Shown: positions 656 through 36,280 of the stretch, piece by piece | Numbering within the stretch: position 1 is the first letter of the stretch | Layout of the letters: every line of letters starts with the position of its first letter | Assembly: GCA_030018855.1 (NCBI GenBank) | Contig: JASEHG010000001.1 | Location: 1 to 36,280 of the forward strand | From: Candidatus Brocadiaceae bacterium | GTDB taxonomy: Bacteria; Planctomycetota; Brocadiia; Brocadiales; Bathyanammoxibiaceae | DNA: 36,280 bases | Reading direction: 5' to 3' | Position numbers and translations under genes: made by a program | Notes under the pieces: generated by a model | Told to the model about the DNA's origin: nothing | The model's database searches: none | The model's input: the letters and a program-made list of their open reading frames with translations, nothing else

Positions 656-1675
656 ATGAAATACCTCCCTATAGGGAAGCCAGACCCTGAACTCCTTGCT
701 AGACTCCTGGAGCAATATACGGGGGCTAAAGATAGGCGTTTAGTAATAGGGCCTGCCGTGGGGGAGGATGCGGCAGTTATTGATTTTGGGGACCGGTACC
801 TGGTAGCCAAGAGCGACCCCATTACCTACGCCACTGAACGCATAGGCTGGTATGCCGTACACATAAATGCCAATGACATAGTCACCCTGGGGGCTGAGCC
901 CAAGTGGTTCCTTGCCACCTTACTCCTTCCCGAAGGAAAGACCGACGAGGGGCTGGTAAGGGGCATCTTTGCCGATATGGCCAGGGCCTCAAAAGAGTTG
1001 GGGGTAGCCCTTTCTGGAGGACACACGGAAGTAACCCCTGGGCTTGATAGACCGATATTGATTGGGCATATGCTGGGCGAGGTGGCCAGGGATAGACTCG
1101 TCCTGAAGACCAATGCCAGGCCCGGGGACAGGATTATCTTGACAAAGGGTATAGCAATAGAAGGTACGGCCCTCTTAGCCAGGGAGAAATCAAGGGAGTT
1201 AGTGACTCACTTCGGTAAGGCTTTCGTACAAAGGGCAAAAAGATTTCTACTTGAGCCAGGAATCAGCATAGTCAAAGAGGCCCTTACCGCCGCCAAAGCC
1301 GCAAGGGTCCACGCCATGCACGACCTCACAGAAGGGGGACTAGCCGCTGGCATACGGGAGATGGCAGAAATTGCCGGCCTGGGGGCTGAGGTGGATAGAC
1401 AGAAGATACACGTCCTTCCAGAGACAGAAAAGCTTTGTTCATATTACGGACTGGACCCACTGGGCACTATAGCCTCCGGGTCCCTCCTTATCGCGGTGGC
1501 CCCGAGGGACAGTGGTAAGGTACTCTCCGCCCTGGAGGCAGAGGGGGTAATGGCTGAGGACATAGGTTGTCTTAGAGAGAAGGCAAGGGGGCTAAAACTA
1601 ATGGAGGATGGACGGCCAAAGGTTTTTCCCGCCTTTGAGGTGGATGAGGTAACGCGGATATTATCCAGGGATTAG
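656..1675 (+). CDS. AIR synthase-related protein (PurM/ThiL/HypE/SelD superfamily); specific function unknown
   Basis: The N-terminus has GPAVGEDAAVIDF...VAKSDP, followed by the HINANDI and GGHTE motifs typical of the PurM-like ATP-binding fold. There is no C-terminal HypE Cys motif and no SelD N-terminal Cys/Sec. Confidence 0.75.
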   Translation: MKYLPIGKPDPELLARLLEQYTGAKDRRLVIGPAVGEDAAVIDFGDRYLVAKSDPITYATERIGWYAVHINANDIVTLGAEPKWFLATLLLPEGKTDEGLVRGIFADMARASKELGVALSGGHTEVTPGLDRPILIGHMLGEVARDRLVLKTNARPGDRIILTKGIAIEGTALLAREKSRELVTHFGKAFVQRAKRFLLEPGISIVKEALTAAKAARVHAMHDLTEGGLAAGIREMAEIAGLGAEVDRQKIHVLPETEKLCSYYGLDPLGTIASGSLLIAVAPRDSGKVLSALEAEGVMAEDIGCLREKARGLKLMEDGRPKVFPAFEVDEVTRILSRD

Positions 1676-1680
1676 TGGTG

Positions 1681-1702
1681 GGGGCGTATTGCAATACGCC
1701 CC
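1681..1702. terminator. Perfect 22-bp GC-rich palindrome GGGGCGTATTGCAATACGCCCC between convergent genes. Possible bidirectional terminator and a member of the GTAGGGGC...GCCCCTAC repeat family.
   Basis: The self-complementarity is perfect on reading. No U-tract follows it, so terminator function is uncertain. Confidence 0.4.
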
Positions 1703-1726
1703 TACATTAAGCGATCAGGTCTGTCC

Positions 1727-2779
1727 CTACTCCAGTAACAATCTTCTATGGGCTATCCTGTTGGCCAGTTTCCAGGAGGCGAGGGTCTCCCTCCGCTCGC
1801 GCTTGGAAAGCTCAGTGTAAATCTGTAGGGGCTGAATATTTTCAGCCCCTACTGCCTCGTTGATGGCCTGGGCGGCCAGTAGCCCGGTGGCCAGGGCAGA
1901 GGATATGCCTTCACCGAACATGTTAAGAAACCCTGCGGCCTCCCCGACAAGGAGTACGTTACCACTACCCAGATAAAAATTCCCCGTGGCGCAGAGGTTT
2001 GTACCCAGACAGCTGGTCTTCCTTACCAGCCTTCCCAGCTTTAATCCAAAATGTTTCTGCAGGAACTCGGTGTAAGTCTTGAGGTAAGGCCCAAATTTCT
2101 CCCCCCTCTTGACTGAGGTGCCAAAGACAATAAAATCGTCTTTCACGTTAAACCATGCGTATATCTCTCCCATACCCGGGTCAAGGAAGCCGTGATACCA
2201 TTCGGGGTCCAGGTTACATTCCCCCTCATAATAGTTCTGGTAGGCCAGGAACCAGAGACATTCCTTCTCCAGTTGGGGATTCAATTTGGCCCTTATGGAT
2301 GACAGACACCCCTCTGCCCCCACCAGATATTTACAACGTATTTCTATAGCCCCCGCTCTCTCATCCTGACAATAAAGTATTATCTCTCTACCATTAACCC
2401 TAAAGTCTTTTAGCAGACACCTGTCCCTTACCTCTGCCCCCGAGCGATCTATAAGGAATTTGTCGTACTGTGCCCGCCAGACGTTGGGCGCCCCTTCCTT
2501 CCCCCCGAAGGGCCAGTTGGTGTATTTCTCTGTGTTTTCCCAGAGGCGCACCCCTTTTATTATCTTTGGCTTGCAGTAGCATTCCTCTGGGATTTGTCCG
2601 AAGTGTTTCTGGGTGAGCTTCAGGGACTTCTCGTTGATGAGTCCACTGCATATCTTGTACCTGGGGAGACTCTTTCTCTCCACCACCAGCACCCCCAGGC
2701 CGTTCTGGGTTAGTCCCTTTGCTGTCGCCGCCCCGGAAGGCCCCGCCCCCACCACCACCACGTCGTATTCCCTATTCAT
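1727..2779 (-). CDS. FAD-dependent oxidoreductase, geranylgeranyl reductase family
   Basis: N-terminal dinucleotide-binding motif DVVVVGAGPSGAATA, and a GGR-like length and layout (350 aa). Confidence 0.75.
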   Translation of the reverse strand: MNREYDVVVVGAGPSGAATAKGLTQNGLGVLVVERKSLPRYKICSGLINEKSLKLTQKHFGQIPEECYCKPKIIKGVRLWENTEKYTNWPFGGKEGAPNVWRAQYDKFLIDRSGAEVRDRCLLKDFRVNGREIILYCQDERAGAIEIRCKYLVGAEGCLSSIRAKLNPQLEKECLWFLAYQNYYEGECNLDPEWYHGFLDPGMGEIYAWFNVKDDFIVFGTSVKRGEKFGPYLKTYTEFLQKHFGLKLGRLVRKTSCLGTNLCATGNFYLGSGNVLLVGEAAGFLNMFGEGISSALATGLLAAQAINEAVGAENIQPLQIYTELSKRERRETLASWKLANRIAHRRLLLE

Positions 2780-8450: not shown

Positions 8451-8461
8451 TATGGAAAATA

Positions 8462-8530
8462 CTAGGGACTAAGCACTAGGCACTGAGGACTAAAAGAAGA
8501 CTTGTTTACTGCCTAGTGCTTAGTGTCCAG
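8462..8530 (-). terminator. Heptamer-arm hairpin (GCACTAR units) overlapping the resB stop and followed by TATTTT on the minus strand. Candidate intrinsic terminator of ccsA-resB.
   Basis: 13-bp perfect core: taagcactaggca (8470-8482) pairs with tgcctagtgctta (8510-8522). Confidence 0.5.
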
Positions 8531-11500: not shown

Positions 11501-12754
11501 ATGACAATGGATCTGTTCTGGTTCTTCCTCCTAATGGGTTCTTTACTCTGTCTATCGGCCCTGTTTTCAGGCTCAGAGACGGCCCTGTTCTCCCTTTCCA
11601 GGGAAGACGTTAAGAGGATAGAGGCCGAAGGCACTCGTACGGGGAGGCTCATAGCGGGACTGGTCAGTTCCCCCAAGAAACTCCTTATTACACTACTCTT
11701 TGGTAACAATGTAGTTAATGTAGCCTTTTTCAGCCTCTCGTATGGCCTGTCTCAATGGGCCCTCCAGCACGAGACCCATGGGGCCTTCTGGGCTACCGTC
11801 AGTGGGTTGGCAAGTCTCCTTATCGTTATCACCTTCGGGGAGGTAATCCCTAAAAGTATCGCAGTAAAGATACCCGAACACCTGGCCCATTACATAGCCT
11901 TCCCTATTTACGTAATAGATAAGCTCCTCTTGCCTTTCAGGGTACCCCTGGGGTGGATAGTGGATGGTGTGGGCTGGGTACTGGGTTGGCGCCCCAGGCA
12001 CGAACCTTATGTGACCATGGAGGAACTAAAGGTCATGCTCTCCTTGAGTGAGAAGCACGGGGCCGTGGAACCCAAGGCGAGGAGCATGATACATGCAGTG
12101 CTGGACTTTGGCAGGATGAGGGTGAGGGATTTGATGGTGCCCAGGGTGGATATGGTGGTCTTTGATATCTCCCGTCCTGCAGGGGAATTTGCTCAATTGG
12201 CCAGGAGTCGCATCTACAAGAAGATGCCCGTCTTTGAGGGTACCAGCGATAATATACTCGGGGTAGTTTATGCCAAAGACGTGTTCCTCAATCCGGATGC
12301 CAGATTAAGGGATCTGGTGAAGCCCATCCTTTTTGTCCCTGAGTCAAAGAATATAGAGAGCCTCCTCAGAGAGTTCCGCAGGGAGCACCAGCAGATGGCC
12401 ATTGTGGTAGACGAGTATGGCGGCACGGCAGGGCTTATTACCCTGGAGGACCTCCTGGAAGAGGTAGTGGGAGACATCCAGGATGAGACGGAACGCCCGG
12501 AAGAACCCATAAGGAGGGTAGGAGATAACCGTTACATAGTTCACGGCAGTCTCAGCCTCAGGGACTGGTCTGGGACCTTCGGGGTAGAGTTGGAATCCAG
12601 TGAGGCCGACACCGTAGGGGGCTTTGTGGTCTCTCTCCTGGGCCGTATACCACAGAGGGAGGACAGTGTTAGTTACCAGAACATCGTCTTTACGGTGGAT
12701 GAGGTTAAGAGGCGACGTGTCACCAGACTTCTTATAGAATTCAGAGAGGAGTAG
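11501..12754 (+). CDS. CNNM/DUF21 transmembrane domain - CBS pair - CorC_HlyC C-terminal domain protein (putative Mg2+/Co2+ efflux, hemolysin-family)
   Basis: N-terminus SALFSGSETALFSL and FGEVIPK (DUF21), then CBS pair region, then the C-terminal CorC-like domain. Confidence 0.85.
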   Translation: MTMDLFWFFLLMGSLLCLSALFSGSETALFSLSREDVKRIEAEGTRTGRLIAGLVSSPKKLLITLLFGNNVVNVAFFSLSYGLSQWALQHETHGAFWATVSGLASLLIVITFGEVIPKSIAVKIPEHLAHYIAFPIYVIDKLLLPFRVPLGWIVDGVGWVLGWRPRHEPYVTMEELKVMLSLSEKHGAVEPKARSMIHAVLDFGRMRVRDLMVPRVDMVVFDISRPAGEFAQLARSRIYKKMPVFEGTSDNILGVVYAKDVFLNPDARLRDLVKPILFVPESKNIESLLREFRREHQQMAIVVDEYGGTAGLITLEDLLEEVVGDIQDETERPEEPIRRVGDNRYIVHGSLSLRDWSGTFGVELESSEADTVGGFVVSLLGRIPQREDSVSYQNIVFTVDEVKRRRVTRLLIEFREE

Positions 12755-12838: not shown

Positions 12839-13804
12839 ATGACGGAATATTACTTATTAATCCTGGCCCTTTGCCTTTCCTTCCTCTACTCTGGTAGTGA
12901 GACGGGCTTCTACTGTCTCAACCGCATAAGGCTCCATTACAGGGAGATAAAGGGCTGGTGGTCGGCAAGGATAATAATGAGATACCTGGCAGAGCCGCAG
13001 AGACTCATCTGCGCTATCCTTATTGGAAACAACGTTGCCAATTACCTTGCTACCATTGTCTTTACCTCCATCCTTATGCACAAGGTCTCCCCGGCGGAGG
13101 CAGGGTTGATGGCCACACTGATTCTGGCCCCCGTACTGATGATATTTTGCGAGATTCTCCCAAAGAGCCTCTTTCAGAGACATGCCGATAATTTCTTTTA
13201 TAAGGTGGTACCACTGGTGGAGGTCTCCTCAAGGCTCTTTCAACCCCTTGTAATACTGCTGGGGCTGACGAGTCGCCTGCCAGAGTACTTTATCCGTGCG
13301 GAGGCCCGGCAGAGCCCCTTCTTCAGCCCACAGCGTCTCAGTTTCCTATTGGAGGAAGGGGCAGAAGGGGGGGCCCTTTCTATGTATCAAAACATTATGG
13401 CCAGTAACATAATGGCCATGGGACAGACACCCGTAGGTAAGGTAATGATACCGCTGGAAGAGGTTACCATGGTCCCGGATACGGTCGGTCCGGAGACCCT
13501 CAAAGACATTGCCAGGGCAAAGAAGTTTTCCCGTATACCCGTCTATCAACGGGAGAGGTCTAAGGTGGTGGGTATCCTTACCCTCCTAGATTTCCTCAGA
13601 GAGGACAAAAAGGAGGTAAGGCCTTTTGTTAAACCCACCGTCTACCTGGAGGCCAGCCTGCCAGTAGATGATGCCTTACTCAGGCTCAGACACTCCAAGC
13701 AGAGGATGGGGATCGTTACCGATGGGAAAGACGGCAGGGCAGTGGGTATAATAACCATTAAAGATTTGGTGGAAGAGGTCGTAGGAGAACTCTCTGTGTG
13801 GTAG
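12839..13804 (+). CDS. Second CNNM/DUF21-CBS protein, lacking the CorC_HlyC C-terminal domain
   Basis: YSGSETGFY and CEILPKS (DUF21), then a CBS pair. It ends straight after the CBS pair (321 aa). Confidence 0.8.
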   Translation: MTEYYLLILALCLSFLYSGSETGFYCLNRIRLHYREIKGWWSARIIMRYLAEPQRLICAILIGNNVANYLATIVFTSILMHKVSPAEAGLMATLILAPVLMIFCEILPKSLFQRHADNFFYKVVPLVEVSSRLFQPLVILLGLTSRLPEYFIRAEARQSPFFSPQRLSFLLEEGAEGGALSMYQNIMASNIMAMGQTPVGKVMIPLEEVTMVPDTVGPETLKDIARAKKFSRIPVYQRERSKVVGILTLLDFLREDKKEVRPFVKPTVYLEASLPVDDALLRLRHSKQRMGIVTDGKDGRAVGIITIKDLVEEVVGELSVW

Positions 13805-13835
13805 CTAGTAGGGGCACGTTGCAATGTGCCCCTGC
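13805..13835. repeat. Palindromic element CTAGTAGGGGCACGTTGCAATGTGCCCCTGC
   Basis: It matches 29 of 31 nt of the element inside tsaD at 35741-35771. Confidence 0.9.
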
Positions 13836-13860
13836 TTACTTACATTAAAACGCACCAGTT

Positions 13861-13890
13861 GTAGGGACAGGGCTAAAGCCCTATCCCTAC
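13861..13890. repeat. Palindrome GTAGGGACAGGGCTAAAGCCCTATCCCTAC (12 bp stem, one mismatch)
   Basis: Read directly. Confidence 0.85.
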
Positions 13891-13902
13891 ACACCCCTTT
13901 GT

Positions 13903-13920
13903 CCCCTCTTTCTAGAGGGG
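13903..13920. repeat. Hairpin CCCCTCT-TTCT-AGAGGGG
   Basis: Read directly. Confidence 0.8.
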
Positions 13921-13930
13921 AAATAATAAT

Positions 13931-13956
13931 GGACAGACCTGAAGGTCTGTCCCTAC
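13931..13956 (-). terminator. Hairpin GGACAGACC-TGAA-GGTCTGTCC(CTAC). On the minus strand it is followed by ATTATTATTT. Candidate terminator of the glycogen/cytochrome transcription unit.
   Basis: 9-bp perfect stem directly downstream of the last minus-strand gene, followed by a T-rich tract. Confidence 0.5.
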
Positions 13957-13960
13957 ATTA

Positions 13961-14517: not shown

Positions 14518-14590
14518 AGTAAACAGTATGTAGTAGGTAGTAAGCAGTAGGCAGTTTCTGCTTACTCCCTACTCCTTACTGCCTACTATC
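14518..14590. repeat. Heptamer-arm hairpin (CAGTAGG/GTAAGCA units) between the two cytochrome genes, overlapping the upstream stop codon
   Basis: gtagtaagcagtaggcag - tttc - tgcttactccctactccttactgcctac. Confidence 0.8.
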
Positions 14591-25318: not shown

Positions 25319-25383
25319 CCAGCAGTAGATAGTAAGCAGAAGGCACTGCTTTCTGCTTACTTCTTACTCCTTACTGCCTACTG
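25319..25383. repeat. Heptamer-arm hairpin (GTAAGCA/CAGTAGA units) between the GalT-like gene and glgA
   Basis: 10-bp perfect core: gtaagcagaa (25332-25341) pairs with ttctgcttac (25351-25360). Confidence 0.8.
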
Positions 25384-26388
25384 TTTTTTAGTTGGTTTTA
25401 CCTGTCTAAGATATTCTGCCGCATTCTCTGGGGGCACGGGGTTGATGTAGAATCCAGTACCCCACTCAAAACCTGCCACCCTGGTGAGTCTGGGGATTAT
25501 CTCTATGTGCCAGTGGTAATAATCCAGTTCCGGGTGGTCAAAGGGACTGGTGTGGATGATGAAGTTGTAGGGGGGTTGCTCAAGACTGCCTTCCAGCTTG
25601 GCCAGGGCAGTCCACAGGGTCTCTGCCAGTTCTTCTACCTCAAACTTCTGGATGTTCTCAAAATGGGAAGAATGGTTCTTGGGTAGTATCCACAGTTCAA
25701 AAGGGAACCTGGAGGCATAGGGGGTAAAGGTGCAGAAGTAGGTGCCGTCTAATACTATTCGGCTGGCCGTAGATATCTCCTGTCTCATCATGTCGCAGAA
25801 GAGGCATCTTCCCCTGTACTTGTAGAAGGCGAGACTGCCTTCCATTTCCGTGGCTACCACGAGGGGGACAATAGGGGTAACGATGAGCTGGGTATGGGTA
25901 TGCTCAAGGCTGGCCCCGGCCGTGGCCCCCACGTTCTTGAAGAGCATACCGTATATCATCCTCTTGTCCTTCTTCAGGTCAACCAACCTGTCCCTGTAGG
26001 TCCAGATTACCTCCTGGATGTAGCGAGGTTCCAGGTCTGTGAGGGAGATGACGTGCTGGGGGCATTCTATTATTACCTCGTGGGCGCCTATACCGTTCAT
26101 AAGGTCATAAATGCCGTCTCCGCGCTTGCTGAGTTCGCCTTCTATCTTGAGGGCGGGGAATTTGTTTGGCACCACCCTTACCCTCCATCCCCTGGAATTA
26201 GGGCTGCTTCCGCGCTCCCTGTAGGCCATAATCTCTGGCGGGGTCTTGTCCTCGTTCCCCGCGCAGAAGGGGCAGAAGTTACCCTTTATAGCGGAAGGGG
26301 CGGTGATAAAATCAGAGGGCCTGAGGGCCCTTTCTGTGGCAATGATTACCCATCTCCCAGATACGGGTTCTTTTCTTAGTTCAGGCAT
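25378..26388 (-). CDS. GalT-family (HIT superfamily branch III) hexose-1-phosphate nucleotidyltransferase/phosphorylase
   Basis: CPFCAGNE Zn motif and the HxHxQ active site (EHTHTQ). The start is set at the ATG at 26388, preceded by AAGGAG. The TTG-extended ORF runs into the repeat. Confidence 0.8.
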
Positions 26389-26402
26389 AGAGTCTCCTTT
26401 TT

Positions 26403-26467
26403 CAGTAGACGGCAAACAGTAGACAGCATACAGGGATAGTGATACCCCTGTCTACTGTCTACTGTCT
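26403..26467. repeat. Heptamer-arm hairpin (CAGTAGA units) between GH57 no.3 and the GalT-like gene
   Basis: acagtagacag (26416-26426) pairs with ctgtctactgt (26448-26458). Confidence 0.8.
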
Positions 26468-26474
26468 CCTTGCC

Positions 26475-28637: not shown

Positions 28638-28660
28638 AATTACGTAGCCAGTCCAGTAGC

Positions 28661-28684
28661 GTAGTCGCAGGCTTTAGCCTGCGG
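28661..28684. repeat. Palindrome GTAGTCGCAGGCTTTAGCCTGCGG (CGCAGGC family copy 2)
   Basis: It matches 3147-3170 and 32619-32642. Confidence 0.9.
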
Positions 28685-28685
28685 A

Positions 28686-28753
28686 CAGTAGTCAGTAAAC
28701 AGCGGGCAGTATAACAGTTTTTCCTACCTACTGTCTACTGTACGTTGTCTACT
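28686..28753. repeat. Heptamer-arm hairpin (CAGTAGT/CAGTAAA units)
   Basis: cagtagtcagtaaacagcgggcagtataacag - ttttt - cctacctactgtctactgtacgttgtctact. Confidence 0.7.
28708..28737 (-). promoter_or_regulatory. Weak candidate promoter for the glycogen operon (TAGACA, 18 nt, TATACT on the minus strand), built from the repeat units themselves
   Basis: Hexamers read on the minus strand, about 70 nt upstream of the GH57 no.3 ATG. Confidence 0.25.
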
Positions 28754-28766
28754 TTGAAAGGCGTAC

Positions 28767-28796
28767 TTGCAAAAAGGGTTAATAGGTGGTAAAAAT
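28767..28796 (+). promoter_or_regulatory. Candidate promoter for the PpiD-like gene (TTGCAA, 17-18 nt, TAAAAAT)
   Basis: Read on the plus strand, about 105 nt upstream of the ATG. SD AAAGGAG precedes the start. Confidence 0.35.
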
Positions 28797-28901
28797 GAGA
28801 ATTGGTCAACTGCCTGCCTTAGGTGGGTTAGCAATCGGAAGACCAAAGACTGATAACTGAAGACTGACAACCGAAAACCGTTCTAAAAGGAGCCCGGTTA
28901 C

Positions 28902-30623
28902 ATGCTTGCTTGGTTGAGGAGTCAAAAGAAGAGGGTTTATATAATCATGGTCTTTGCCATGGCGGCCTGGGGTATCGGGTACTCGGCCTCCTATTTAATC
29001 CCCAGGAAGCCAATAGGGTCTATCCTGGGCGAAAAGATATATCAGGAGGAGTACGGCGACGCCATGAACCGCTGGCACAGGGTCTTCCTCAGGGAGGGGA
29101 ACCTGCCCATTGGTAAGATAGTCTGGGAACAAATGGTCATGTCCAGACAGGCCGAGAAGATGGGGATTGCCGTAAGCGATGAGGAGATTATGGAGAGACT
29201 GCAAAGCATGGCCTTTCTTACCATGAGTCACAGGGGCGGATTACCACCGCAGTCCCAGTTAATACAGGCCCTCTGTCAGACCTACAGCATTAACGAAGAC
29301 CAGCTCTGGAGGACCTTCAGGGAGGCCATCCTCGTAGAAAAGATGAGCACCCTCATTGCCAGCGGGATAAAGATTACCAACGAAGAGGCCTGGCAGAGAT
29401 ACGCAAGGGAGAATGAAGAGGTCAAGGTGCAATACCTGGCCCTGAGGGCTGGTGACCTGGTGGACCACGTGCAAGTAAGCCCGGAGGAGATTGGCTCTTT
29501 CTATAACGCCCACAAGGATAACCTGCCTAACCCTCCACGGGGTGAACCAGGGTATAAGGAGACTGAGAAGGTAAAGATTGAGTATGTTATGGCCCGGTAC
29601 AGGGACCTGGAGGATAGGGTCTCCGTGTCCGAGGAGGAGGTAAAATCTTACTACGAAGATAATAAGGAAAGACGTTATAAGGTACAGAAACCAGAGAAGG
29701 CCAAAGAAGAAGGAAAGGAACCACCTCCTGCTTATAAGTCACTGGAAGAGGTGCGAGGGGAGATAAAGGATTCTCTCAAGAGGGAGAAGTCAAAGGAACT
29801 GGTCAACAAACTTATCAGCCAGGCAGATGAGGAGATTTACGAGAGTCTGGGGAAGGCGGAACGTCTAAGTTTCTCCACCATAGCCCAGAAGTTGGGCCTT
29901 TTCTATAAAGAGACTGATTACTTTGGCAGGGAAGAGTCCGAGAAGGTTATAAGAGAGGCAGAAGACCTGGCCAAGCAGGCCTTTGAGAGGGAGGCCTTTG
30001 ACCCCAGCCCTCCCCAGGATGCACCGGTCGGGAAGTATATATTCCAGGTAGTCTCCAGGAAGGAGGCCTCTCCCCCACCCCTGGAAGAGATTAAGGAGAA
30101 GGTAGAAAAGGACCTGAGGGAGGAGAAGGCCCTCCAGAGGGCAAAAGAACTTGCAGACGCCGCGGCGGACAGGATAAGGAATAAATCCCTGGAAGAAGGG
30201 CTTAAGTTCCTGGAAGAAGAGGGCAAGAAACTGAGAGGAGAAAACAGGGGGCTTATTTACCAGAAGGGAGAGACCGAATTCTTTGCCAGGACAGAGGTAG
30301 TGGAAGGCAGGGCCTATCGCTACTTAAAGTCTCTGGATGCCGACGTGCCCAACCTGGTGCAGAGGGCCTTCAGCCTCAAGGAGGTAGCATCTGTCCCAGG
30401 CGGACCCCCAACAAAGGAGGTAGCCGTAGTAGCTGAGGAGGCCGGGAAAAAGGCCTGCTACATTATATGGCTGGCCGGCCGGAAAGAGGCGGAGAAGAGT
30501 AAATTTGATGAGGACAAGAAAAAACTCCTCAGGAGATACCTTACAGAGAAACAACAGACCTTCCTCAAGGAGTGGGTTGATGCCTTAAGGGAGAAAGGCA
30601 AGTTGACCAAGGCAAATATGTAG
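28902..30623 (+). CDS. PpiD-like periplasmic chaperone (N-terminal TM anchor plus SurA-N-like domain) with no recognisable parvulin PPIase domain
   Basis: N-terminal anchor RVYIIMVFAMAAWGIGY and a PpiD-like overall layout. I could not find parvulin signature residues. Confidence 0.6.
   Translation: MLAWLRSQKKRVYIIMVFAMAAWGIGYSASYLIPRKPIGSILGEKIYQEEYGDAMNRWHRVFLREGNLPIGKIVWEQMVMSRQAEKMGIAVSDEEIMERLQSMAFLTMSHRGGLPPQSQLIQALCQTYSINEDQLWRTFREAILVEKMSTLIASGIKITNEEAWQRYARENEEVKVQYLALRAGDLVDHVQVSPEEIGSFYNAHKDNLPNPPRGEPGYKETEKVKIEYVMARYRDLEDRVSVSEEEVKSYYEDNKERRYKVQKPEKAKEEGKEPPPAYKSLEEVRGEIKDSLKREKSKELVNKLISQADEEIYESLGKAERLSFSTIAQKLGLFYKETDYFGREESEKVIREAEDLAKQAFEREAFDPSPPQDAPVGKYIFQVVSRKEASPPPLEEIKEKVEKDLREEKALQRAKELADAAADRIRNKSLEEGLKFLEEEGKKLRGENRGLIYQKGETEFFARTEVVEGRAYRYLKSLDADVPNLVQRAFSLKEVASVPGGPPTKEVAVVAEEAGKKACYIIWLAGRKEAEKSKFDEDKKKLLRRYLTEKQQTFLKEWVDALREKGKLTKANM
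30383..30409 (+). repeat. In-frame copy of the TCCGCC-N3-GGCGGA-type module inside the PpiD-like gene (encodes VASVPGGPP)
   Basis: GGTAGCATCTGTCCCAGGCGGACCCCC against 33825-33851 AGTGGCATCCGCCCCAGGCGGACCCCC. Confidence 0.75.
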
Positions 30624-30628
30624 GGAAG

Positions 30629-30686
30629 GTCAGCAGTCAGTAGTCAGCAAGATTATTGATAGCTGATTACTGACAGCTGACTACTG
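30629..30686. repeat. Heptamer-arm hairpin (GTCAGYA units) filling the spacer between the PpiD-like gene and ribF
   Basis: 11-bp perfect core: cagtagtcagc (30637-30647) pairs with gctgactactg (30676-30686). The ribF ATG is 3 nt downstream. Confidence 0.85.
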
Positions 30687-30689
30687 AAA

Positions 30690-31655
30690 ATGGACGTCCT
30701 TTATGGCATAAAACCCCTGCCCAATAAACTTCACTGGCCCGTAATCACCGTGGGGGGGTTTGACGGCGTACACCTTGGCCACCAGAAGATTATCCAGGAG
30801 ACCAGGGATTGGGCGGCTGAGAGGGGGGGTGAGTCCATAGTAATAACCTTTGAAAGACACCCCAAGGGTATATTAAGCGGAAGCCCACTTAGTTTTATTA
30901 CCTCTCTGGAACATAGATTGGTGTTCTTTCAACGCCTCGGGGTAGACCTTGCCGTAGTCCTTGACTTTAATGAGGTGGCCAGCCTGGAGGCAGAGGATTT
31001 TGTAAGTCGGTTAATTGTCGGTTGGTTGGGCACAAAGGGGTGGGTAATGGGTTTTAATTTCCGTTTCGGAAAAGATAAGGGCGGAGATTTTTCCCTGGCC
31101 TCCAGGCTTTCCCAGCGTTACGGGTTCCAGCTTCGTACCTGTCCCCCCGTAAAGTTTAAAGGAGATATTATTAGTAGTACCAGTATCAGGGAGGCCATCC
31201 TGATGGGAGAGCTGGAGACTGCAGAGGGGATGTTAGGGAGAGCCGTTTCTATCCTTGGTACGGTAGTCCGCGGGAGCGGGAGGGGTAAGGGTTTGGGCTA
31301 TCCCACGGCAAACCTTGACCTCCATCACGAGATAAAACCCCCTGACGGCGTGTACGCCACATGGGTAACTATAAATGGTAAGGATTACCTCTCCCTCACC
31401 AATATTGGCACAAGGCCCACCTTTGAGAGGCCAGGGGGTGAGACGACCACCGAGGTATACATTATTGATTTTGACAAAGACCTCTACGGGGAGGTACTGG
31501 AGGTCAAATTTGTCTACAAGCTCCGAGGAGAGCTAAAATTTACCAGCGCAGAAGCCCTGAAGGCCCAGATGGATAAGGACAAAGAGGAACTCCTCAGCCG
31601 TCTGGGTAAAAAGACCTTGACAAAGGGTGGAGCTACTACTATAATTCTATCGTAA
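30690..31655 (+). CDS. ribF: Bifunctional riboflavin kinase / FMN adenylyltransferase
   Basis: GGFDGVHLGHQ nucleotidyltransferase motif and a C-terminal riboflavin kinase domain (GYPTANL...). Confidence 0.93.
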   Translation: MDVLYGIKPLPNKLHWPVITVGGFDGVHLGHQKIIQETRDWAAERGGESIVITFERHPKGILSGSPLSFITSLEHRLVFFQRLGVDLAVVLDFNEVASLEAEDFVSRLIVGWLGTKGWVMGFNFRFGKDKGGDFSLASRLSQRYGFQLRTCPPVKFKGDIISSTSIREAILMGELETAEGMLGRAVSILGTVVRGSGRGKGLGYPTANLDLHHEIKPPDGVYATWVTINGKDYLSLTNIGTRPTFERPGGETTTEVYIIDFDKDLYGEVLEVKFVYKLRGELKFTSAEALKAQMDKDKEELLSRLGKKTLTKGGATTIILS

Positions 31656-31668
31656 GTTTCTATTCTAT

Positions 31669-31741
31669 GGGCAGATAGCTCAGCTGGTAGAGCACAGGAC
31701 TGAAAATCCTGGTGTCGGCGGTTCAATCCCGCCTCTGCCCA
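31669..31741 (+). tRNA. tRNA-Phe (anticodon GAA), CCA not encoded
   Basis: Hand-folded cloverleaf: acceptor GGGCAGA/TCTGCCC, D stem GCTC/GAGC, anticodon stem CAGGA/TCCTG with loop CTGAAAA, and T stem GGCGG/CCGCC with loop TTCAATC. Confidence 0.95.
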
Positions 31742-31744
31742 CTT

Positions 31745-31772
31745 TTGAAAGATGCGTCATAGCTGCTATTAA
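31745..31772 (+). promoter_or_regulatory. Candidate promoter for the split transketolase genes (TTGAAA, 16 nt, TATTAA)
   Basis: Read on the plus strand, 26 nt upstream of the TTG start. Confidence 0.4.
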
Positions 31773-31797
31773 AAGGCAAGACTAACTAAAAGGCACA

Positions 31798-32619
31798 TTG
31801 AACACCAGGCCCACCACTCAAGAACTCCAGACCAAGGCCAAAGAGATACGCCGCCACATTATCCGCATGCTGGCCAAGGCTGGTTCTGGTCACCCAGGGG
31901 GGTCTCTCTCTGCCACAGACCTCCTTGTGGCCCTCTATTATGGGAAACTCAGACACGACCCCAAAAACCCCAAATGGACTGAGAGGGACAGGTTCGTCCT
32001 CTCCAAGGGTCACGGTTGCCCGGCCCTTTATGCCATCCTGGCTGAGATGGGCTACTTCCCCATAAGTGAGCTAGACACACTACGTCAGTTCGGGAGCCGC
32101 CTCCAGGGGCATCCTGATATGAAGCGGACCCCGGGGATAGAGATATCCAGTGGTTCTCTGGGCCATGGTCTATCGGCAGGCGCAGGTATGGCTATGGCCG
32201 CAAGGATAGATGGCCTGGACTACAGGGTTTATGTCATGCTGGGAGATGGCGAGGTAGAAGAAGGTCAGGTCTGGGAGGCGGCCATGGCCGCAGGGCATTA
32301 CAAACTGGATAACCTCTGCGCCATACTGGACAACAACGGCCTCCAGATAGACGGCCCCATCCACGACGTCATGTCCCCCCTCCCCCTCCTTGAGAAGTGG
32401 GATGCCTTTGGGTGGCATGTAATACATATTGACGGGCACAACATGGCCCAAATACTGGAGGCCTACGACCGGGCCGAGGCCATAAAAGGTAAGCCTACCA
32501 TAATTATTGCCAAAACCGTAAAGGGTAAAGGGGTCTCTTTCATGGAGAATCAGGTGGACTGGCACGGCAAGGCCCCCACCCCTGAACAGGCAGAAAAGGC
32601 CCTGGCAGAACTGGTATAG
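31798..32619 (+). CDS. Transketolase, N-terminal (TPP pyrophosphate-binding) subunit; TTG start
   Basis: SGHPGGSLS, SKGHG and GSLGHGLS motifs. The only in-frame ATG downstream of the TTG start falls too late, at codon 24. Confidence 0.9.
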   Translation: MNTRPTTQELQTKAKEIRRHIIRMLAKAGSGHPGGSLSATDLLVALYYGKLRHDPKNPKWTERDRFVLSKGHGCPALYAILAEMGYFPISELDTLRQFGSRLQGHPDMKRTPGIEISSGSLGHGLSAGAGMAMAARIDGLDYRVYVMLGDGEVEEGQVWEAAMAAGHYKLDNLCAILDNNGLQIDGPIHDVMSPLPLLEKWDAFGWHVIHIDGHNMAQILEAYDRAEAIKGKPTIIIAKTVKGKGVSFMENQVDWHGKAPTPEQAEKALAELV

Positions 32620-32642
32620 TAGCCGCAGGCTTTAGCCTGCGG
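32619..32642. repeat. Palindrome GTAGCCGCAGGCTTTAGCCTGCGG (CGCAGGC family copy 3) in the 44-nt spacer between the transketolase subunit genes
   Basis: It starts at the last base of the TAG stop. Confidence 0.9.
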
Positions 32643-32663
32643 AAACTCTAGGAAGATAATACG

Positions 32664-33635
32664 ATGACAGTAACTACTCCAAAACAGCAACAACAGCCAG
32701 TTAAAAAAGAGGCCACCCGGGATGCCTATGGACAGGCCCTCCTGGAACTGGGCGAGACAAACAAGAACATAGTAGTACTTGACGCAGACCTTGCCAAATC
32801 CACTACTACCCTGAAATTCGGCAAGAAGTTCCCTGAACGCTTCTTTGACATGGGTGTTGCCGAGGCAAATATGATGAATACGGCGGCAGGGTTGGCTACC
32901 TGCGGCAAGATACCCTTTGTCAGCACCTTCTGTATCTTCGCCACCGGGAGGGCCTGGGAACAGGTGAGGAGTACCATATGCTACAGCGGCCTCAACGTAA
33001 AGATAGCGGCCACTCATGGAGGAGTGGCGGTAGGGGCAGATGGTTCTTCACATCAAAGTATAGAAGACTTTGCCCTCATGTCCTCCATCCCCACCATGAC
33101 GGTAATAGAACCTTGCGACTCTATTGAGACCAGGAAGGCCATAAAGGCAGTGGTAGACCACCAGGGGCCTGTTTACATTAGATTGGGCAGATCCCCCTCT
33201 CCTGTGATTACAGAGGAGAGTACCCCATTTGAGATAGGAAAGGCCAATGTCCTCAGGGAAGGCAAGGACGTGACCATAGCGGCCTGTGGTATTATGGTAC
33301 CTAATGCCCTGAAGGCCGCAGAGGACTTATCCGCACGAGGGATAGAGGCCACCGTAATCAATCTCCATACCATTAAACCCTTAGACCGAAAGACCCTGGT
33401 GACGTATGCCAGGAGGACCGGTGCGGTGGTAACCGCAGAACAGCACGTCCTTGAGGGAGGGTTAAGCTCCGCTGTGGCCCTCGCCCTGGCCAGGGAATAC
33501 CCGGTGCCTATGGAGGCAGTAGGTATTGATAACCGTTTCGGTCAGTCGGGAGACCCGGAACTCCTCTTTAAGGAGTACCACCTGACCCCAGACGACATCC
33601 TCCAGGCCGCCCTCAGGGCCTATGGTAGGAAATAA
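32664..33635 (+). CDS. Transketolase, C-terminal (pyrimidine-binding plus C-terminal domain) subunit
   Basis: FFDMGVAEANM, and typical length and adjacency. Confidence 0.9.
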   Translation: MTVTTPKQQQQPVKKEATRDAYGQALLELGETNKNIVVLDADLAKSTTTLKFGKKFPERFFDMGVAEANMMNTAAGLATCGKIPFVSTFCIFATGRAWEQVRSTICYSGLNVKIAATHGGVAVGADGSSHQSIEDFALMSSIPTMTVIEPCDSIETRKAIKAVVDHQGPVYIRLGRSPSPVITEESTPFEIGKANVLREGKDVTIAACGIMVPNALKAAEDLSARGIEATVINLHTIKPLDRKTLVTYARRTGAVVTAEQHVLEGGLSSAVALALAREYPVPMEAVGIDNRFGQSGDPELLFKEYHLTPDDILQAALRAYGRK

Positions 33636-33641
33636 AAGGCG

Positions 33642-33706
33642 TAATTGTAAAATGAAGATTGGTCCGCCTTAGGCGGATTAAAATTTCCAATTTCCAATCT
33701 TAAATT
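33642..33706. repeat. Heptamer-arm hairpin (AATTTCC units) tipped by TCCGCCTTAGGCGGA (33663-33677)
   Basis: aagattgg (33655-33662) pairs with ccaatctt (33694-33701), around a perfect 15-nt palindrome. Confidence 0.8.
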
Positions 33707-33726
33707 TCTTGATAGGATAGATAGGG

Positions 33727-35085
33727 ATGTTCTGTATAAACAATACAAAACCCATGGCACTTAATATACTCCCCCTCATAGTAGCCCTCTTATTCCTCCT
33801 CTCCTCCCCTTGTCTTGCAGAAGAAGTGGCATCCGCCCCAGGCGGACCCCCACCCCTACCATCATACGACGAGTATTACAAGAATTATGAGGAGTTCGTA
33901 AGGGTAGTAAAACTCATCCAGGAGAAATACGTAAAGGACATAAAACTCCCGGAACTCTTTCAGGGGGCTTACAGGGGTATGCTGGAGGGGTTAGACCCTT
34001 ACAGCCAATTCTTTGGCCCCGAGGAACTGGAAGAACTGAAGGTAGAGACAGAGGGAAAGTTCGGGGGACTGGGCATTGAGGTTGTCATCCGGGACGGTGT
34101 CCTCTACGTCATCAGCCCTATCCTGGACAGTCCTGCCTTTAGGGCTGGGGTAATGGTGGGGGACAGGATAATAAAGATTGAAGGGACGTCTACTGAGAAC
34201 ATGAGCCTCAGAGACGCCGTCAGGCGTCTCAGGGGAGAACCTAGCACAGGCGTAACCATCACTGTAGTCCACCAGGGAGAGACACAAGCGGTAGATATTG
34301 TCATCGTCCGGGACATTATCCAGGTCCACTGCATACGGGGCGCCAGGATACTGGACGAGGAGGCAAAGATAGGTTACATGGCCCTTACCAGCTTCCAGGA
34401 TAATACCCTGGAGGAGATGGACAAGGCCGTTAATGAGCTTATGGGTAAAGGGATGAAGGCCCTTATCCTTGACCTGCGCTTCAACCCTGGGGGACTGTTA
34501 AACATGGCCGTAGCGGTATCGGATAGATTCCTCTCCCAGGGAGTTATAGTATCCACTAAAGGGAGGGAAGAAGAACAAAATCAGGTCTACTTAGCTACGG
34601 AAGGCGGTACCTATTCAGACCTCCCCCTTGTAATCCTGGTAAATAATGGAAGCGCCAGCGCAGCAGAGATAGTGGCCGGTGCAATACAGGACTACAAACG
34701 CGGACTCATTGTGGGCACCAAGACCTTTGGAAAAGGCTCGGTCCAAAGCCTCATCGGGGTGGAAGAGGAGCATTGTGCCTTGAAGCTCACCACCGCCTTG
34801 TACTACACCCCCTCAGGTAAATCCATTGACCACATCGGTATAGAGCCGGACGTAAAGGTGGAACTAACCCCTGCCGAGACCAAGTCACTCCACGAGTACC
34901 TTAGCAAGGTGAACATTACCAGTCAAACTGGAGAACAATTACCCCAGGAGGATACATTTGTAGACCTCCAACTCCATCGGGCCATTGAAATTATAAAAGA
35001 GGGAAAATTTTCTTTGTATCTCCTTAGCTCTGTAGAGGCAATTCATGAATCGCCCCGACTAAAAGATGTTAATCCTGGGCATTGA
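33727..35085 (+). CDS. S41-family carboxyl-terminal processing protease with PDZ domain
   Basis: Signal peptide, PDZ region GGLGIEV, LILDLRFNPGG, the Ser site GSASAAEI and the Lys site TFGKGSVQ. Confidence 0.9.
   Translation: MFCINNTKPMALNILPLIVALLFLLSSPCLAEEVASAPGGPPPLPSYDEYYKNYEEFVRVVKLIQEKYVKDIKLPELFQGAYRGMLEGLDPYSQFFGPEELEELKVETEGKFGGLGIEVVIRDGVLYVISPILDSPAFRAGVMVGDRIIKIEGTSTENMSLRDAVRRLRGEPSTGVTITVVHQGETQAVDIVIVRDIIQVHCIRGARILDEEAKIGYMALTSFQDNTLEEMDKAVNELMGKGMKALILDLRFNPGGLLNMAVAVSDRFLSQGVIVSTKGREEEQNQVYLATEGGTYSDLPLVILVNNGSASAAEIVAGAIQDYKRGLIVGTKTFGKGSVQSLIGVEEEHCALKLTTALYYTPSGKSIDHIGIEPDVKVELTPAETKSLHEYLSKVNITSQTGEQLPQEDTFVDLQLHRAIEIIKEGKFSLYLLSSVEAIHESPRLKDVNPGH
33825..33851 (+). repeat. 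In-frame copy of the TCCGCC-N3-GGCGGA module just after the signal peptide (encodes VASAPGGPP)
   Basis: AGTGGCATCCGCCCCAGGCGGACCCCC, with TCCGCC/GGCGGA as a perfect 6-bp stem. Confidence 0.8.
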
Positions 35086-36073
35086 GACCTCTTGCGACGA
35101 GACTTCCGTCGCAGTAGTAGAAGATGGACTCTCCGTCCGTTCCAACCTCGTCAGCACTCAGGAGAGACTCCATCTAAAGTATGGAGGAGTGGTACCAGAG
35201 ATAGCCTGCCGTGCCCACCTGGAGTCCCTCCTCCCCATCCTGGACGAGGCCATGAAGACCGCAGGGATAACCCTGAACGACCTGGACGCAGTAGCAGTAA
35301 CCACCACCCCCGGCCTCATTGGGGCACTCCTCATAGGGGTAACTGCGGCCAAGGCACTGGCCTGGACACTCAAGATACCTTTAATAGCGGTGCACCACCT
35401 CCACGCCCATATCTTTGCGGCTAAACTAGAACATGGCAAGGCTATGGAATTCCCCTGTCTCAGTCTGGTAGTCTCAGGGGGGCACACCAGCCTCTTCCTG
35501 AGCAGTAAAGAGACCCGGCACGAACTACTAGGGGCCACCCTTGACGATGCCGCAGGAGAGGCCTTTGATAAGGTGGCCAAACTGCTCGGCCTGGGTTATC
35601 CAGGCGGCCCAGCCATTGACAGCATTGCCAGAGAAGGAGACCCCGCACGTGTACCCTTCCCCCGCTCTTACCTGGAGCCTGGCTCTCTGGACTTCAGCTT
35701 CAGCGGACTAAAGACTGCCGTACTTTACCATTACCAGGGACTAGTAGGGGCACGTTGCAACGTGCCCCTACCCCGAAAAGAACTGGCTGACCTTGCGGCC
35801 AGCTTCCAGGAGGCCGTGGTGGACGTCCTGGTTGAAAAGACCCTCCTGGCCTTGAGAAAATACCCCGTAAAGGGAGTGGCCCTCGGGGGGGGTGTAGCCT
35901 CTAACTCTAGACTCAGGAAAAGACTCTCACTGGCCCTGGAAGGACGTCATATCAGGCCGTACTTCCCTCCTCCCGCACTCTGTACAGACAATGCCGCCAT
36001 TGTGGCGGGCCTGGCCTACTATAAATATCTGGAAGGAGAGCTTGCCTCCCTGGAGGTGGAGGCCGCGGCGTAA
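35066..36073 (+). CDS. tsaD: tRNA N6-adenosine threonylcarbamoyltransferase
   Basis: LGIETSCDETS N-terminus, HHLHAH metal motif, GGVASN and CTDNAA. It overlaps the protease gene by 20 nt. Confidence 0.95.
   Translation: MLILGIETSCDETSVAVVEDGLSVRSNLVSTQERLHLKYGGVVPEIACRAHLESLLPILDEAMKTAGITLNDLDAVAVTTTPGLIGALLIGVTAAKALAWTLKIPLIAVHHLHAHIFAAKLEHGKAMEFPCLSLVVSGGHTSLFLSSKETRHELLGATLDDAAGEAFDKVAKLLGLGYPGGPAIDSIAREGDPARVPFPRSYLEPGSLDFSFSGLKTAVLYHYQGLVGARCNVPLPRKELADLAASFQEAVVDVLVEKTLLALRKYPVKGVALGGGVASNSRLRKRLSLALEGRHIRPYFPPPALCTDNAAIVAGLAYYKYLEGELASLEVEAAA
35741..35771 (+). repeat. Perfect 28-bp palindrome GTAGGGGCACGTTGCAACGTGCCCCTAC (35744-35771) plus a shared CTA lead-in, in frame within tsaD (encodes LVGARCNVPL)
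   Basis: Matches the intergenic element at 13805-13835 at 29 of 31 nt. Confidence 0.9.
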
Positions 36074-36133
36074 AGAGACTCTTCTATCTGATGTCATTCT
36101 GAGCGAAGCGAAGAATCTCAGGAGTTGGGCGTA

Positions 36134-36280
36134 ATGGACATAGATGATATAAAGGACTTGCTTAGTAAGGTCCAAAAGGGGAAGGTCTCCCTGGCGGAGG
36201 CCCTGAAGCACCTCAAGGACCTCCCCTACAAGGACATAGGCTTTGCCAGGGTGGATAGCCACAGGGCCCTGCGATGTGGG
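36134..36280 (+). CDS. Partial CDS (N-terminal 49 codons); probable LarB-like / PurE-family (COG1691) protein
   Basis: The frame is open from the ATG at 36134 to the window end. DIGFARVDSHRALRCG resembles the N-terminal region of LarB-type AIR-carboxylase-like proteins. The short fragment limits confidence. Confidence 0.45.
   Translation, partial: MDIDDIKDLLSKVQKGKVSLAEALKHLKDLPYKDIGFARVDSHRALRCG

Follow-up and report, generated by a model that had tools for sequence, protein, structure and literature searches.

A palindrome in frame within the tsaD gene of a Brocadiaceae bacterium as a probable double-foot GTAG REP linked to subclass 2.4 RAYT transposases

Our analysis of a 36,280-nucleotide (nt) stretch of DNA from a Candidatus Brocadiaceae bacterium (contig JASEHG010000001.1, positions 1 to 36,280; hereafter the window) centers on a palindrome lying in frame within the essential gene tsaD, which is probably a double-foot repetitive extragenic palindrome (REP) of the GTAG type. 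We propose that it is linked to RAYTs (tyrosine transposases associated with REPs, or TnpA_REP) of subclass 2.4 and that it is a tolerated selfish passenger that does not serve tsaD, a reading to which we assign a probability of about 0.8. The element, GTAGGGGCACGTTGCAACGTGCCCCTAC at positions 35744-35771, is a perfect palindrome of 28 nt, with two 14-nt arms that are 100% complementary and no spacer between them. It is bounded by the feet GTAG and CTAC and has a GGGG/CCCC stem base (GGGGC/GCCCC directly inside the foot), an anatomy that matches the published definition of the double-foot REP. Both this class, with its connection to RAYT subclass 2.4, and the occurrence of REPs within genes are already known, and no new system is revealed here.

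The subclass was described by Quentin et al. (2018, BMC Genomics 19:475, PMC6006769), who equate TnpA_REP subclass 2.4 with group 4 of the RAYTs as defined by Bertels. Its members display HuH, W and Y motifs of the form NH[IFV]H, WQ and YIxNNP, respectively, along with a variable insertion between β3 and αC, and they are found in Cyanobacteria, Bacteroidetes and, in a scattered manner, in other phyla. Their REPs come as canonical long versions, whose stem has three G-C pairs at its base, or as double-foot versions with a 5' GT[AG]G and a 3' C[TC]AC. The latter flank the tnpA_REP gene and are also inserted in frame into the gene itself, where they lie between its HuH and Tyr motifs. A 28-nt example from Table S1 of the same source, GTAGGGGCGAAAAATTTTTCGCCCCTAC, was also found by us at the loci L050 and L051. 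The tsaD palindrome shares with these REPs the feet, the G-C stem base and the 28-nt unit, while differing in that it resides in tsaD rather than in a transposase gene. Judged by its sequence, it has the features of a double-foot REP: the GTAG...CTAC feet and at least three consecutive G-C pairs at the bottom of the stem of a hairpin-forming palindromic unit. Its kin are mostly extragenic and lie just downstream of genes, and the same lineage has a subclass 2.4-like tnpA_REP gene (in the assembly L206) that is both flanked by a REP and carries one in frame. A term search of Quentin et al. and its supplement found neither the two exact 28-mers that we see across many phyla nor an allelic series at a single codon position.

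The palindrome is accompanied by kin elsewhere in the window (Table 1). With up to three mismatches, the 28-mer was found at two sites in the window (35744 and 13808) and at none in 100 dinucleotide-preserving shuffles; similarly, the core GGGGCNNNTTGCAANNNGCCCC recurs at three sites (1681, 13811 and 35747) against an expectation of zero. Altogether, the 36-kb window holds three copies of the subfamily and two related hairpins, where none are expected, and their flanks are unrelated. All the related hairpins start with GT[AG]GGG and end with CCC[CT]AC. The initial annotation, which had been made from the DNA letters alone, was correct regarding the palindrome, its position in frame and the peptide it encodes, as well as the match of 29 out of 31 positions between 35741-35771 and 13805-13835. 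The related palindrome it placed at 1681-1702 is indeed kin, and the complete unit, which has a GTGG foot, measures 28 nt (1678-1705). This full extent had been missed, as had a further family member at 1825-1852, which encodes (A)VGAENIQPL(Q) in the same frame as in tsaD within a Pfam-confirmed gene for a FAD-dependent oxidoreductase. The description of the element as terminator-like did not stand: no T-run follows any of the copies, the downstream sequences being CCCCGAAAAG (from 35772), TTACTTACAT (from 13836) and ATTAAGCGAT (from 1706), and a terminator scan of 13600-14100 made no call at the 13808 copy. Hence, we rejected an intrinsic terminator.

Table 1. Positions of the palindromic elements, their host gene and the candidate transposase gene (window coordinates, except for the last row, which is in L206)
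Feature	Position	Strand	Description
tsaD REP	35744..35771	strand-symmetric	28-nt perfect palindrome, probable double-foot GTAG REP; in frame, encodes V227-L235 (preceded by CTA, Leu226)
Intergenic copy, same REP subfamily	13808..13835		GTAGGGGCACGTTGCAATGTGCCCCTGC; 2 mismatches, degenerate 3' foot (GTAG...CTGC); starts 3 nt after the TAG stop of the open reading frame 12839..13804
Intergenic copy, sister subfamily	1678..1705		GTGGGGGCGTATTGCAATACGCCCCTAC; GTGG...CTAC feet; starts 2 nt after the stop of the open reading frame 656..1675
Second intragenic double-foot REP	1825..1852		GTAGGGGCTGAAAATATTCAGCCCCTAC (reading of the - strand); in frame in the FAD-dependent oxidoreductase gene 1727..2779 (-)
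GTAG...CTAC hairpin of another class	13861..13890		GTAGGGACAGGGCTAAAGCCCTATCCCTAC; related; same module in the extra element of L001
tsaD host gene	35066..36073	+	335 aa; REP peptide = residues 226-235
L206 RAYT gene	11916..12494		intact, 192 aa; two genes downstream of tsaD (order tsaD, AIRC, RAYT); not called in the source annotation

Since the window comes from a contig assembled from a metagenome, where repeats may be joined wrongly, one might suspect an assembly chimera, a concern already voiced in the initial annotation, or else a chance palindrome. Given the empty shuffles, and given that five independent assemblies have a hairpin at these codons in TsaDs that are full-length, in frame and otherwise 84-98% identical, the probability of either is vanishingly small; the independent relatives L001, L205, L206 and L207 and the protein P0134 all have one there.

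To place the element in a wider context, one genome per bacterial species was scanned with AGGGGCNNNTTGCAANNNGCCCCT, yielding at least 118 loci in Cyanobacteria, Planctomycetota, Omnitrophota, groups of the candidate phyla radiation, Chloroflexota, Nitrospirota, Atribacterota, Calditrichota, Ignavibacteria, Bacteroidota, Zixibacteria, Sumerlaeota and others. Among the 125 matches listed, the inner triplets are complementary in 118 and the ends are GT..AC in 97, though these ends lay outside the search pattern; conservation stops exactly at the edges of the 28-mer and the flanks are unrelated. Two exact 28-mers dominate these matches, namely GTAGGGGCGTATTGCAATACGCCCCTAC, with at least 66 copies, and the version from the window, with at least 19 loci in other genomes. 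Many copies of the family are found in the sister assembly as well as in related metagenome-assembled genomes (MAGs; L110, L206, L095 and L014/L022/L083/L106). As a REP-free background we used a set of distant metagenomic tsaD genes obtained with a generic TsaD motif scan: no GTAGGG-N16-CCCTAC 28-mers were found in the ~0.4 Mb around 80 of these unrelated genes (relatives of at most 56% identity, among the matches listed).

Across the family, the form GTAGGG-N16-CCCTAC is represented by at least 30 distinct 28-mers, all perfect or near-perfect, the middle of which varies symmetrically. This variation bears on the possibility that the palindrome is a binding site of a host DNA-binding protein or a restriction/modification-type target, which would be maintained for its part in chromosome biology and not as a substrate of a transposase. 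Its perfect dyad symmetry and 6-bp palindromic center do resemble a site for a dimer, and the REPs and bacterial interspersed mosaic elements (BIMEs) of Escherichia coli bind IHF, gyrase and Pol I. However, the center varies freely (30 different 28-mers) while the feet and stem base remain constant, which is the pattern to be expected from GTAG-foot recognition by TnpA_REP (Quentin et al., PMC6006769). Moreover, copies are embedded in, and flank, RAYT genes. We therefore consider a host binding site to be very improbable, and favor the reading of the palindrome as a REP.

The distribution of the family relative to genes is likewise that of REPs. By a lenient test, a spanning open reading frame (ORF) was found for 36 of the 125 copies outside the window, leaving 89 without one, and the window copies at 13808 and 1678 lie immediately downstream of stop codons. 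In these genomes, most of whose DNA is coding, ~70% or more of the copies lie outside genes, indicating that the family is depleted in genes, as expected for REPs. One of the three frames of the palindrome contains a TAG, whereas the other two are open on either strand and encode VGAxCNxPL and RGxLQxAPT; the copies in genes use only these two stop-free frames, and use both of them. At least 14 of the 125 copies are in frame in clearly real proteins, with eight Pfam-confirmed hosts: prolyl-tRNA synthetase (ProS), TilS, a PabB/TrpE-type synthase (two copies), Lgt, a QueE-like radical-SAM enzyme, a GT4 glycosyltransferase, a response regulator/SpoIIE protein and a cytidylyltransferase. Pfam also confirms a DsrK/HmeD-like gene in L002 as a host. 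Some genes have two REP-derived peptides, for instance the PabB/TrpE-type synthase of L095 (4687 and 4978; VGARCNVPL and VGAYCNTPL) and a HAMP sensor of L120 (3516; SRGTLQRAPT and GVGATRRVAPT). A general location of the copies at the apex of older hairpins was rejected: at least three additional pairs are present in 9 of 93 cases, against 1.45 expected, which is a minority.

A connection to a transposase emerges from three of the 125 copies, which are in frame inside homologous small ORFs in L101 (a Nitrospira MAG), L019 (Zixibacteria) and L007 (Salinibacteraceae). These ORFs share a HUH motif, PNH[VI]HG, followed by WQRNYYEH and YIxxNP; the specific versions are NHIH and YIVNNP in L019 and NHVH and YIITNP in L101. 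A further copy lies 130 nt upstream of the ORF in L007. The most telling homolog is encoded by L206 (GCA_016209685.1), a groundwater Planctomycetota MAG that is about 94-95% identical to the window (93-97.6% over 25388-36279). Its RAYT displays MPNHLHG (with an L in place of the I/F/V of subclass 2.4), IWQRNYYEH and EYIINNP. The 28-mer GTAGGGGCGGTTCGCGAACCGCCCCTAC is found in frame within the gene at 12181-12208, between the HuH and Tyr motifs, where it encodes CRGGSRTAPT, and again at 12491-12518, where it overlaps the stop codon such that the TAG of the foot is the stop. The best NCBIfam family of this protein is REP_Tyr_transpos (REP-associated tyrosine transposase, NF047646; E = 5.7e-16), which is also the best family across the homologs. 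The IS200 model gave 19.5 bits for the homolog in L019 and no match for the L206 ORF, and a sequence search of the PDB with the L206 RAYT returned no match at E <= 0.01. The Y1_Tnp gene of L004 belongs to another motif type (DHIH) and looks truncated. The L206 RAYT, 0.9 kb away, is a likely cognate enzyme of the tsaD REP.

In E. coli, the GTAG guide tetranucleotide at the foot of a G-C-rich REP hairpin is read on single-stranded DNA by a Y1/HUH enzyme, and cleavage and rejoining of single-stranded REPs have been shown in vitro for E. coli TnpA_REP only (Messing et al. 2012, PMC3479197; Corneloup et al. 2021, PMC8266576). Extrapolating from this biochemistry, the RAYT would recognize GTAG-foot hairpins in single-stranded DNA, and would cut and rejoin them, thereby spreading the copies and reshuffling or exchanging them. 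One such copy would have entered the part of tsaD coding for the connector after helix α7. With two of the three frames of the palindrome being open and the loop tolerating changes in length and sequence, tsaD would have remained functional and the element would persist as a passenger. The site would then be as unstable as REPs are, with relatives showing other REP alleles, partial duplications of the arms or no REP at all. We infer that the RAYT mobilizes the copies, that the insert is neutral for TsaD and how its alleles turned over. The earlier suggestion that a single factor might act on both the intergenic copies and the one in tsaD is consistent with the assignment to the REP/RAYT system.

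That the host gene is tsaD is indicated by a score of 411.1 bits against TIGR03723 (cut-off 296.1), with residues 3-321 covered, and by a match to TsaD of Thermotoga maritima (6nak_B, E = 2.9e-88). The codons CTA GTA GGG GCA CGT TGC AAC GTG CCC CTA specify LVGARCNVPL, residues 226-235, between the conserved FSFSGLKT and LAASFQEAVVD blocks. In an AlphaFold2 model of the window TsaD (mean pLDDT 89, with dips to 82-84 around the loop), residues 213-229 form a helix, 230-236 a loop and 237-265 the next helix, so that the REP peptide makes up the end of the first helix and the loop. Residues 213-226 align with helix α7 of the T. maritima protein (210-223), which, in a recent cryo-electron microscopy structure of the T. 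maritima TsaB2D-tRNA complex (2026, PMC13276492; PDB 13fn/13fo), lies on the D-stem of the tRNA, with its first turn and the FSFSGLK motif providing essential contacts. Placed relative to the tRNA by alignment to the T. maritima numbering and by that published description, the REP peptide is therefore predicted to begin where the D-stem helix ends distally, and to connect it to the following helix. The variability of this loop in length and sequence argues for tolerance of changes in the connector. The initial annotation had rightly called it a loop of variable length, as the T. maritima TsaD has a 9-residue gap there. At its other end, tsaD overlaps the upstream gene for an S41 peptidase (33727..35085), the last 20 nt of which (35066-35085) include the tsaD start codon, and the overlap is annotated likewise in L002, L003 and L006.

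Comparisons with REP-free orthologs reveal a footprint that is not that of a plain insertion of 9-10 residues, as had initially been envisaged. Relative to T. maritima TsaD the loop is indeed longer by nine residues, but relative to the nearest REP-free orthologs it gains two residues only (GLVGARCNVPLPRKE versus GLLKTRVTLTRKE). At the DNA level, the 3' arm GTG CCC CTA CCC lines up with GCA CCC TTG TCC of L005, and ~18 nt, comprising the 5' arm and the center, stand in place of ~12 nt. A parallel situation is seen in the FAD-dependent oxidoreductase gene, where CAG CCC CTA CAG lines up with ACC CCC CTG GAG of a REP-free ortholog (AESSGKTPLE); here, the 3' arm lies over an ancestral Pro-Leu, and 18 nt stand in place of 15 nt, with a net gain of one residue. 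With REP-free orthologs shorter by just two amino acids in tsaD and by one in the oxidoreductase gene, a simple insertion of 28-30 nt was rejected. The footprint could have originated through an insertion followed by a deletion, through capture at a foot-like CCCCT half-site or through the survivorship of those events that kept a needed Leu.

The tsaD codons of the closest relatives present a whole series of alleles. While the window has CTA followed by GTAGGGGCACG-TTGCAA-CGTGCCCCTAC, L206 and L207 (98.5% amino acid identity) have GTAGGGGCACG-GCATGC-CGTGCCCCTAC, which is again a perfect 28-nt palindrome, though all six central bases differ from those of the window. The other filled alleles are GTAGGGGCACGGCACACCGTGCCCCTGCCCCTAC in L001 (97%), with a 6-nt duplication of the arm, GTGGTGGCGTCCGCCTCAGGCGGACACGCGCCCCTAC in L205 (97%), GTAGGGGCACGGCGCGCCGTGCCCCTG ACACCA GTGCCCCTAA in L002 (86%) and GTAGGGACATCCGCCTCAGGCGGACACGTGTCCCTAC in L003 (84%). 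The tsaD genes of L004, L005 and L006 (84, 83 and 80%, respectively) lack the hairpin, reading, for example, CTT TTG AAA ACC AGG GTC ACG TTG ACC, and no double-foot REP was found in the 9.6-21 kb sampled around each of them. Thus, presence or absence of the element in tsaD tracks that of the repeat family, which supports its identification as a REP. The initial annotation had raised the prospect that orthologs from genomes free of the repeat might have the same peptide; those of L004-L006 instead read LKTRVT, LKTKAP and LKTKGV. The loop of the L004 tsaD (~5680-5700) does have a small hairpin, GGGTCACGTTGACCC, which is 10/11 identical to the 5' arm of the REP, GGGGCACGTTG, in a different reading frame; this could be a remnant, a target hairpin or a product of chance.

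Within the 90% protein cluster that includes the window, we counted eight loop peptides, namely VGARCNVPL, VGARHAVPL, VGARHAMPL, VGARHTVPLPL, VGARYAVPLPL, VGTRHAVPLPL, VGARRAVPL and VVASASGGHAPL, in proteins that are otherwise nearly identical. Between the window and L001 (94.5% nucleotide identity), the center of the hairpin shows 4 substitutions in 6 nt in addition to the duplication, and the differences elsewhere are mostly at third codon positions. The turnover at this site is thus unusually fast and symmetric. Evidence for the recent mobility of such elements comes from directly after the tsaD stop codon of L001, where a 68-nt composite element (1372-1439), GTAGGGACAG...CTGTCCCTAC (GTAGGGACAGGGCTTTAGCCCTGTCC...GGACAGACCTGAAGGTCTGTCCCTAC), is present that is absent from the window (36075); two of its modules also occur at 13861-13890 and 13931-13952 of the window, and by this comparison the element is a recent gain or loss.

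How did the different alleles arise? One conceivable history is a single ancient insertion that was inherited vertically and changed in place, its symmetry being upheld by hairpin-templated (template-switch) correction instead of by copy replacement or re-insertion. All alleles share the site, the frame and the feet GTAGGG...CCCTAC, the changes among them are central and symmetric (TTGCAA, GCATGC, GCGCGC), and the tail TPVPLT of L002 still resembles the REP-free TRVTLT of L004. The arm duplications in L001 and L002 are consistent with slippage and are seen rarely elsewhere: L013 has a triple tandem of the half-arm GTAGGGAACGGTCGCG ahead of a full palindrome at ~5440-5516, and at 214-270 in L071 a duplicated 3' arm follows the REP. 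These resemble the duplications in the tsaD alleles, but at 2 of 131 a half-arm duplication was rejected as a general signature of the family. Weighing against a single insertion, the REP-bearing taxa do not form a clade. In a tree of four genes (1317 residues, seven taxa, no outgroup), the filled L003 is sister to L005, which has an empty, ancestral-type loop, with 98% bootstrap support; a tree of TsaD alone does not resolve the seven close relatives, its bootstraps ranging from 0.31 to 0.66. Excision would also not restore the ancestral codons, which are missing from the REP-bearing genes. Further, the same inner variants occur at other loci: the allele of the window is found at position 3882 of L110 and in other phyla, and the GCGCGC allele (P0129, L002) at 5869 of L095. 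Finally, L205, a member of the 90% cluster of the window, shares the inner module TCCGCCTCAGGCGGACACG with the distant L003. On balance, we regard an in-place history of this kind as unlikely.

Because the filled state is not a clade, the seven-taxon tree without an outgroup suggests that either the site was occupied more than once or the alleles moved between lineages. A bolder version of the former, which we put forward only tentatively and hold to be doubtful, is that the tsaD site, far from being a frozen accident, is a recurrently re-targeted and re-written REP landing site: the REP would be captured at a short half-site resembling its own 3' foot (a Pro-Leu encoded by CCC CTN), overwriting the neighboring codons rather than merely adding DNA, and its center would then be replaced symmetrically in both arms within populations that are ~95% identical.

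The REP could, alternatively, have been retained as a functional RNA element of the tsaD transcript, for instance one that pauses the ribosome or RNA polymerase, blocks 3' exonucleases or serves as a processing site. The RNA of the 94-nt region folds strongly (-38.2 kcal/mol; z = -3.9 versus shuffles) with a 12-bp stem at the palindrome, and a strong stem is kept in every allele of the six sequenced relatives despite the changes in sequence. Moreover, REPs in E. coli transcripts can stabilize the upstream mRNA. Given the strength of the RNA stem, an effect on the translation or decay of the tsaD mRNA is possible. Nevertheless, the sister lineages (80-86% protein identity) have no hairpin there, the same 28-mer is present in many unrelated genes and in the intergenic DNA of many phyla, and the perfect palindromes without a loop in the window and L206 point to symmetry at the DNA level, not to the design of an RNA stem-loop. 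Retention of the stem is also a property of the entire REP family and not of the tsaD site, and Rfam has no family at the palindrome, its sole match in the window being a tRNA. With hairpin-free sisters, a hypervariable center and the same element in many unrelated genes, nothing points to a role specific to tsaD, and we deem selection for such an RNA element improbable.

Several observations weigh against the proposal that the tsaD palindrome is a neutral passenger mobilized by a RAYT. On the side of the enzyme, the L206 RAYT scores below the curated cut-offs (58.7 bits versus 80 for NF047646, for which the homologs span 58.7-64.1 bits, and 22.6 versus 23 for Pfam Y1_Tnp), the copy in L207 (2390-2992) is truncated to 144 aa, and no RAYT was found in the 13-21 kb sampled from L002 and L003, both of which have the tsaD hairpin. 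By tblastn there is no RAYT homolog in the window, which ends at 36280, 145 nt into the AIRC gene that separates tsaD from the RAYT in L206 and L207, and thus short of the position of the RAYT. The REP of the RAYT gene itself differs from that of tsaD in the inner 12 nt. To our knowledge, transposition of a REP by a RAYT has never been shown in vivo. On the side of the site, the net gain in the sequence alignments is too small for a plain cut-and-paste of 28-30 nt. Neutrality is an assumption, and as the peptide begins at the C-terminal end of α7 it may affect the binding of tRNA. Lastly, the hairpin is kept in every allele, as would also result from selection on structure.

The closest precedents for the location of the element come from the GTAG-tagged REPs that Di Nocera et al. 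(2013, BMC Genomics 14:522, PMC3733652) reported from eight phyla, including Planctomycetes and Cyanobacteria. These too are found wholly within ORFs of known function, among them genes for a tRNA synthetase and a tRNA pseudouridine synthase; their termini supply TAG stops, and some are inserted in pre-existing palindromes. They differ in being tagged at one end only, as opposed to both ends in tsaD, and dimers or groups encoding 20-30 aa account for over half of the inserts within genes. A term search of this study and its supplements found no tsaD, and the sequence of the tsaD REP is absent from its supplements; a literal search of the literature for the sequence returned unrelated primer matches only. 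With intragenic REPs documented both there and by Quentin et al. (PMC3733652, PMC6006769), an in-frame hairpin in an essential gene is less striking than it had first appeared. The REPs of E. coli resemble those of the window in the GTAG foot and in lying mostly just downstream of genes, but they have imperfect, bulged stems and a single foot, form BIMEs and are extragenic, and their enzyme is of subclass 2.2 (DHLH) (PMC3479197, PMC8266576).

Two further types of bacterial repeats invite comparison. The Rickettsia palindromic elements (RPEs; Ogata et al. 2000), which Di Nocera et al. also discuss, are reportedly inserted in frame in coding genes, including essential ones, at positions on the surface of proteins that remain functional; RPE-1 is said to be ~100-150 bp, and the short RPE-4 and RPE-6 to be CGTC-tagged, with all of them restricted to Rickettsia. 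We know of no established link between RPEs and RAYTs. The tsaD element, with its 28 nt, GTAG tags and host from the Planctomycetota, was rejected as an RPE: the outcome, an in-frame insertion, is alike, but the family is not. The small dispersed repeats (SDRs) of Nostoc and Anabaena (Elhai et al. 2008), which are cyanobacterial, are said to be hairpins of 21-27 nt that often occur within tandem heptamer repeats and are nested in each other. In combining REPs with heptamer-repeat hairpins in intergenic DNA the window is similar to these by description; the SDRs are a family with other sequences.

The heptamer hairpins of the window consist of imperfect tandem heptamers (e.g., CTGTCTA and AGTAGAC) and are located at 8460-8532, 11162-11235, 14518-14587, 25321-25371, 26404-26470 and 30637-30687. 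None of the three in the stretch shared with L206 (25388-36279) is conserved there, with the flanking genes being 93-97% identical, and nearly all intergenic regions of this stretch differ between the two. At the place of the heptamer-repeat hairpin at window 26399-26479, L206 (1157-1589) has a 119-aa gene of the 23S_rRNA_IVP family (PF05635, a four-helix bundle), which is bordered by inverted arrays of the heptamers GGAATGC/GCATTCC; a 23S_rRNA_IVP-type gene is also inserted between tsaD and the AIRC gene in L003. This has the look of a further small mobile cassette. The stretch separating tsaD from the following gene of the window contains TCATTCTGAGCGAAGCGAAGAATC (36094-36117), another dispersed repeat that recurs, with 0-3 mismatches, in L001, L037, L110, L120 and L002 and at the unrelated metagenome locus L159.

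One implication of these results is that the peptides VGAxCNxPL and RGxLQxAPT mark such elements in proteins from many phyla, and should not be read as conserved motifs. Beyond that, the tsaD locus presents a natural experiment on REP dynamics, in which a single codon position of a conserved single-copy gene has an empty state, at least seven alleles at the DNA or protein level and duplications of the arms. Together with the copy at 1825-1852, it suggests that a REP replaces DNA at a half-site resembling its foot and that its center is rewritten symmetrically. If the site were indeed recurrently re-targeted, an essential enzyme would have a hypervariable peptide immediately behind its tRNA D-stem helix, and the relatives would offer natural before-and-after snapshots of the insertion and turnover of a REP, which have never been watched directly. 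Through the series of alleles, the symmetric changes of the center and the replacement-like footprint, the insertion and turnover of REPs could become directly testable.

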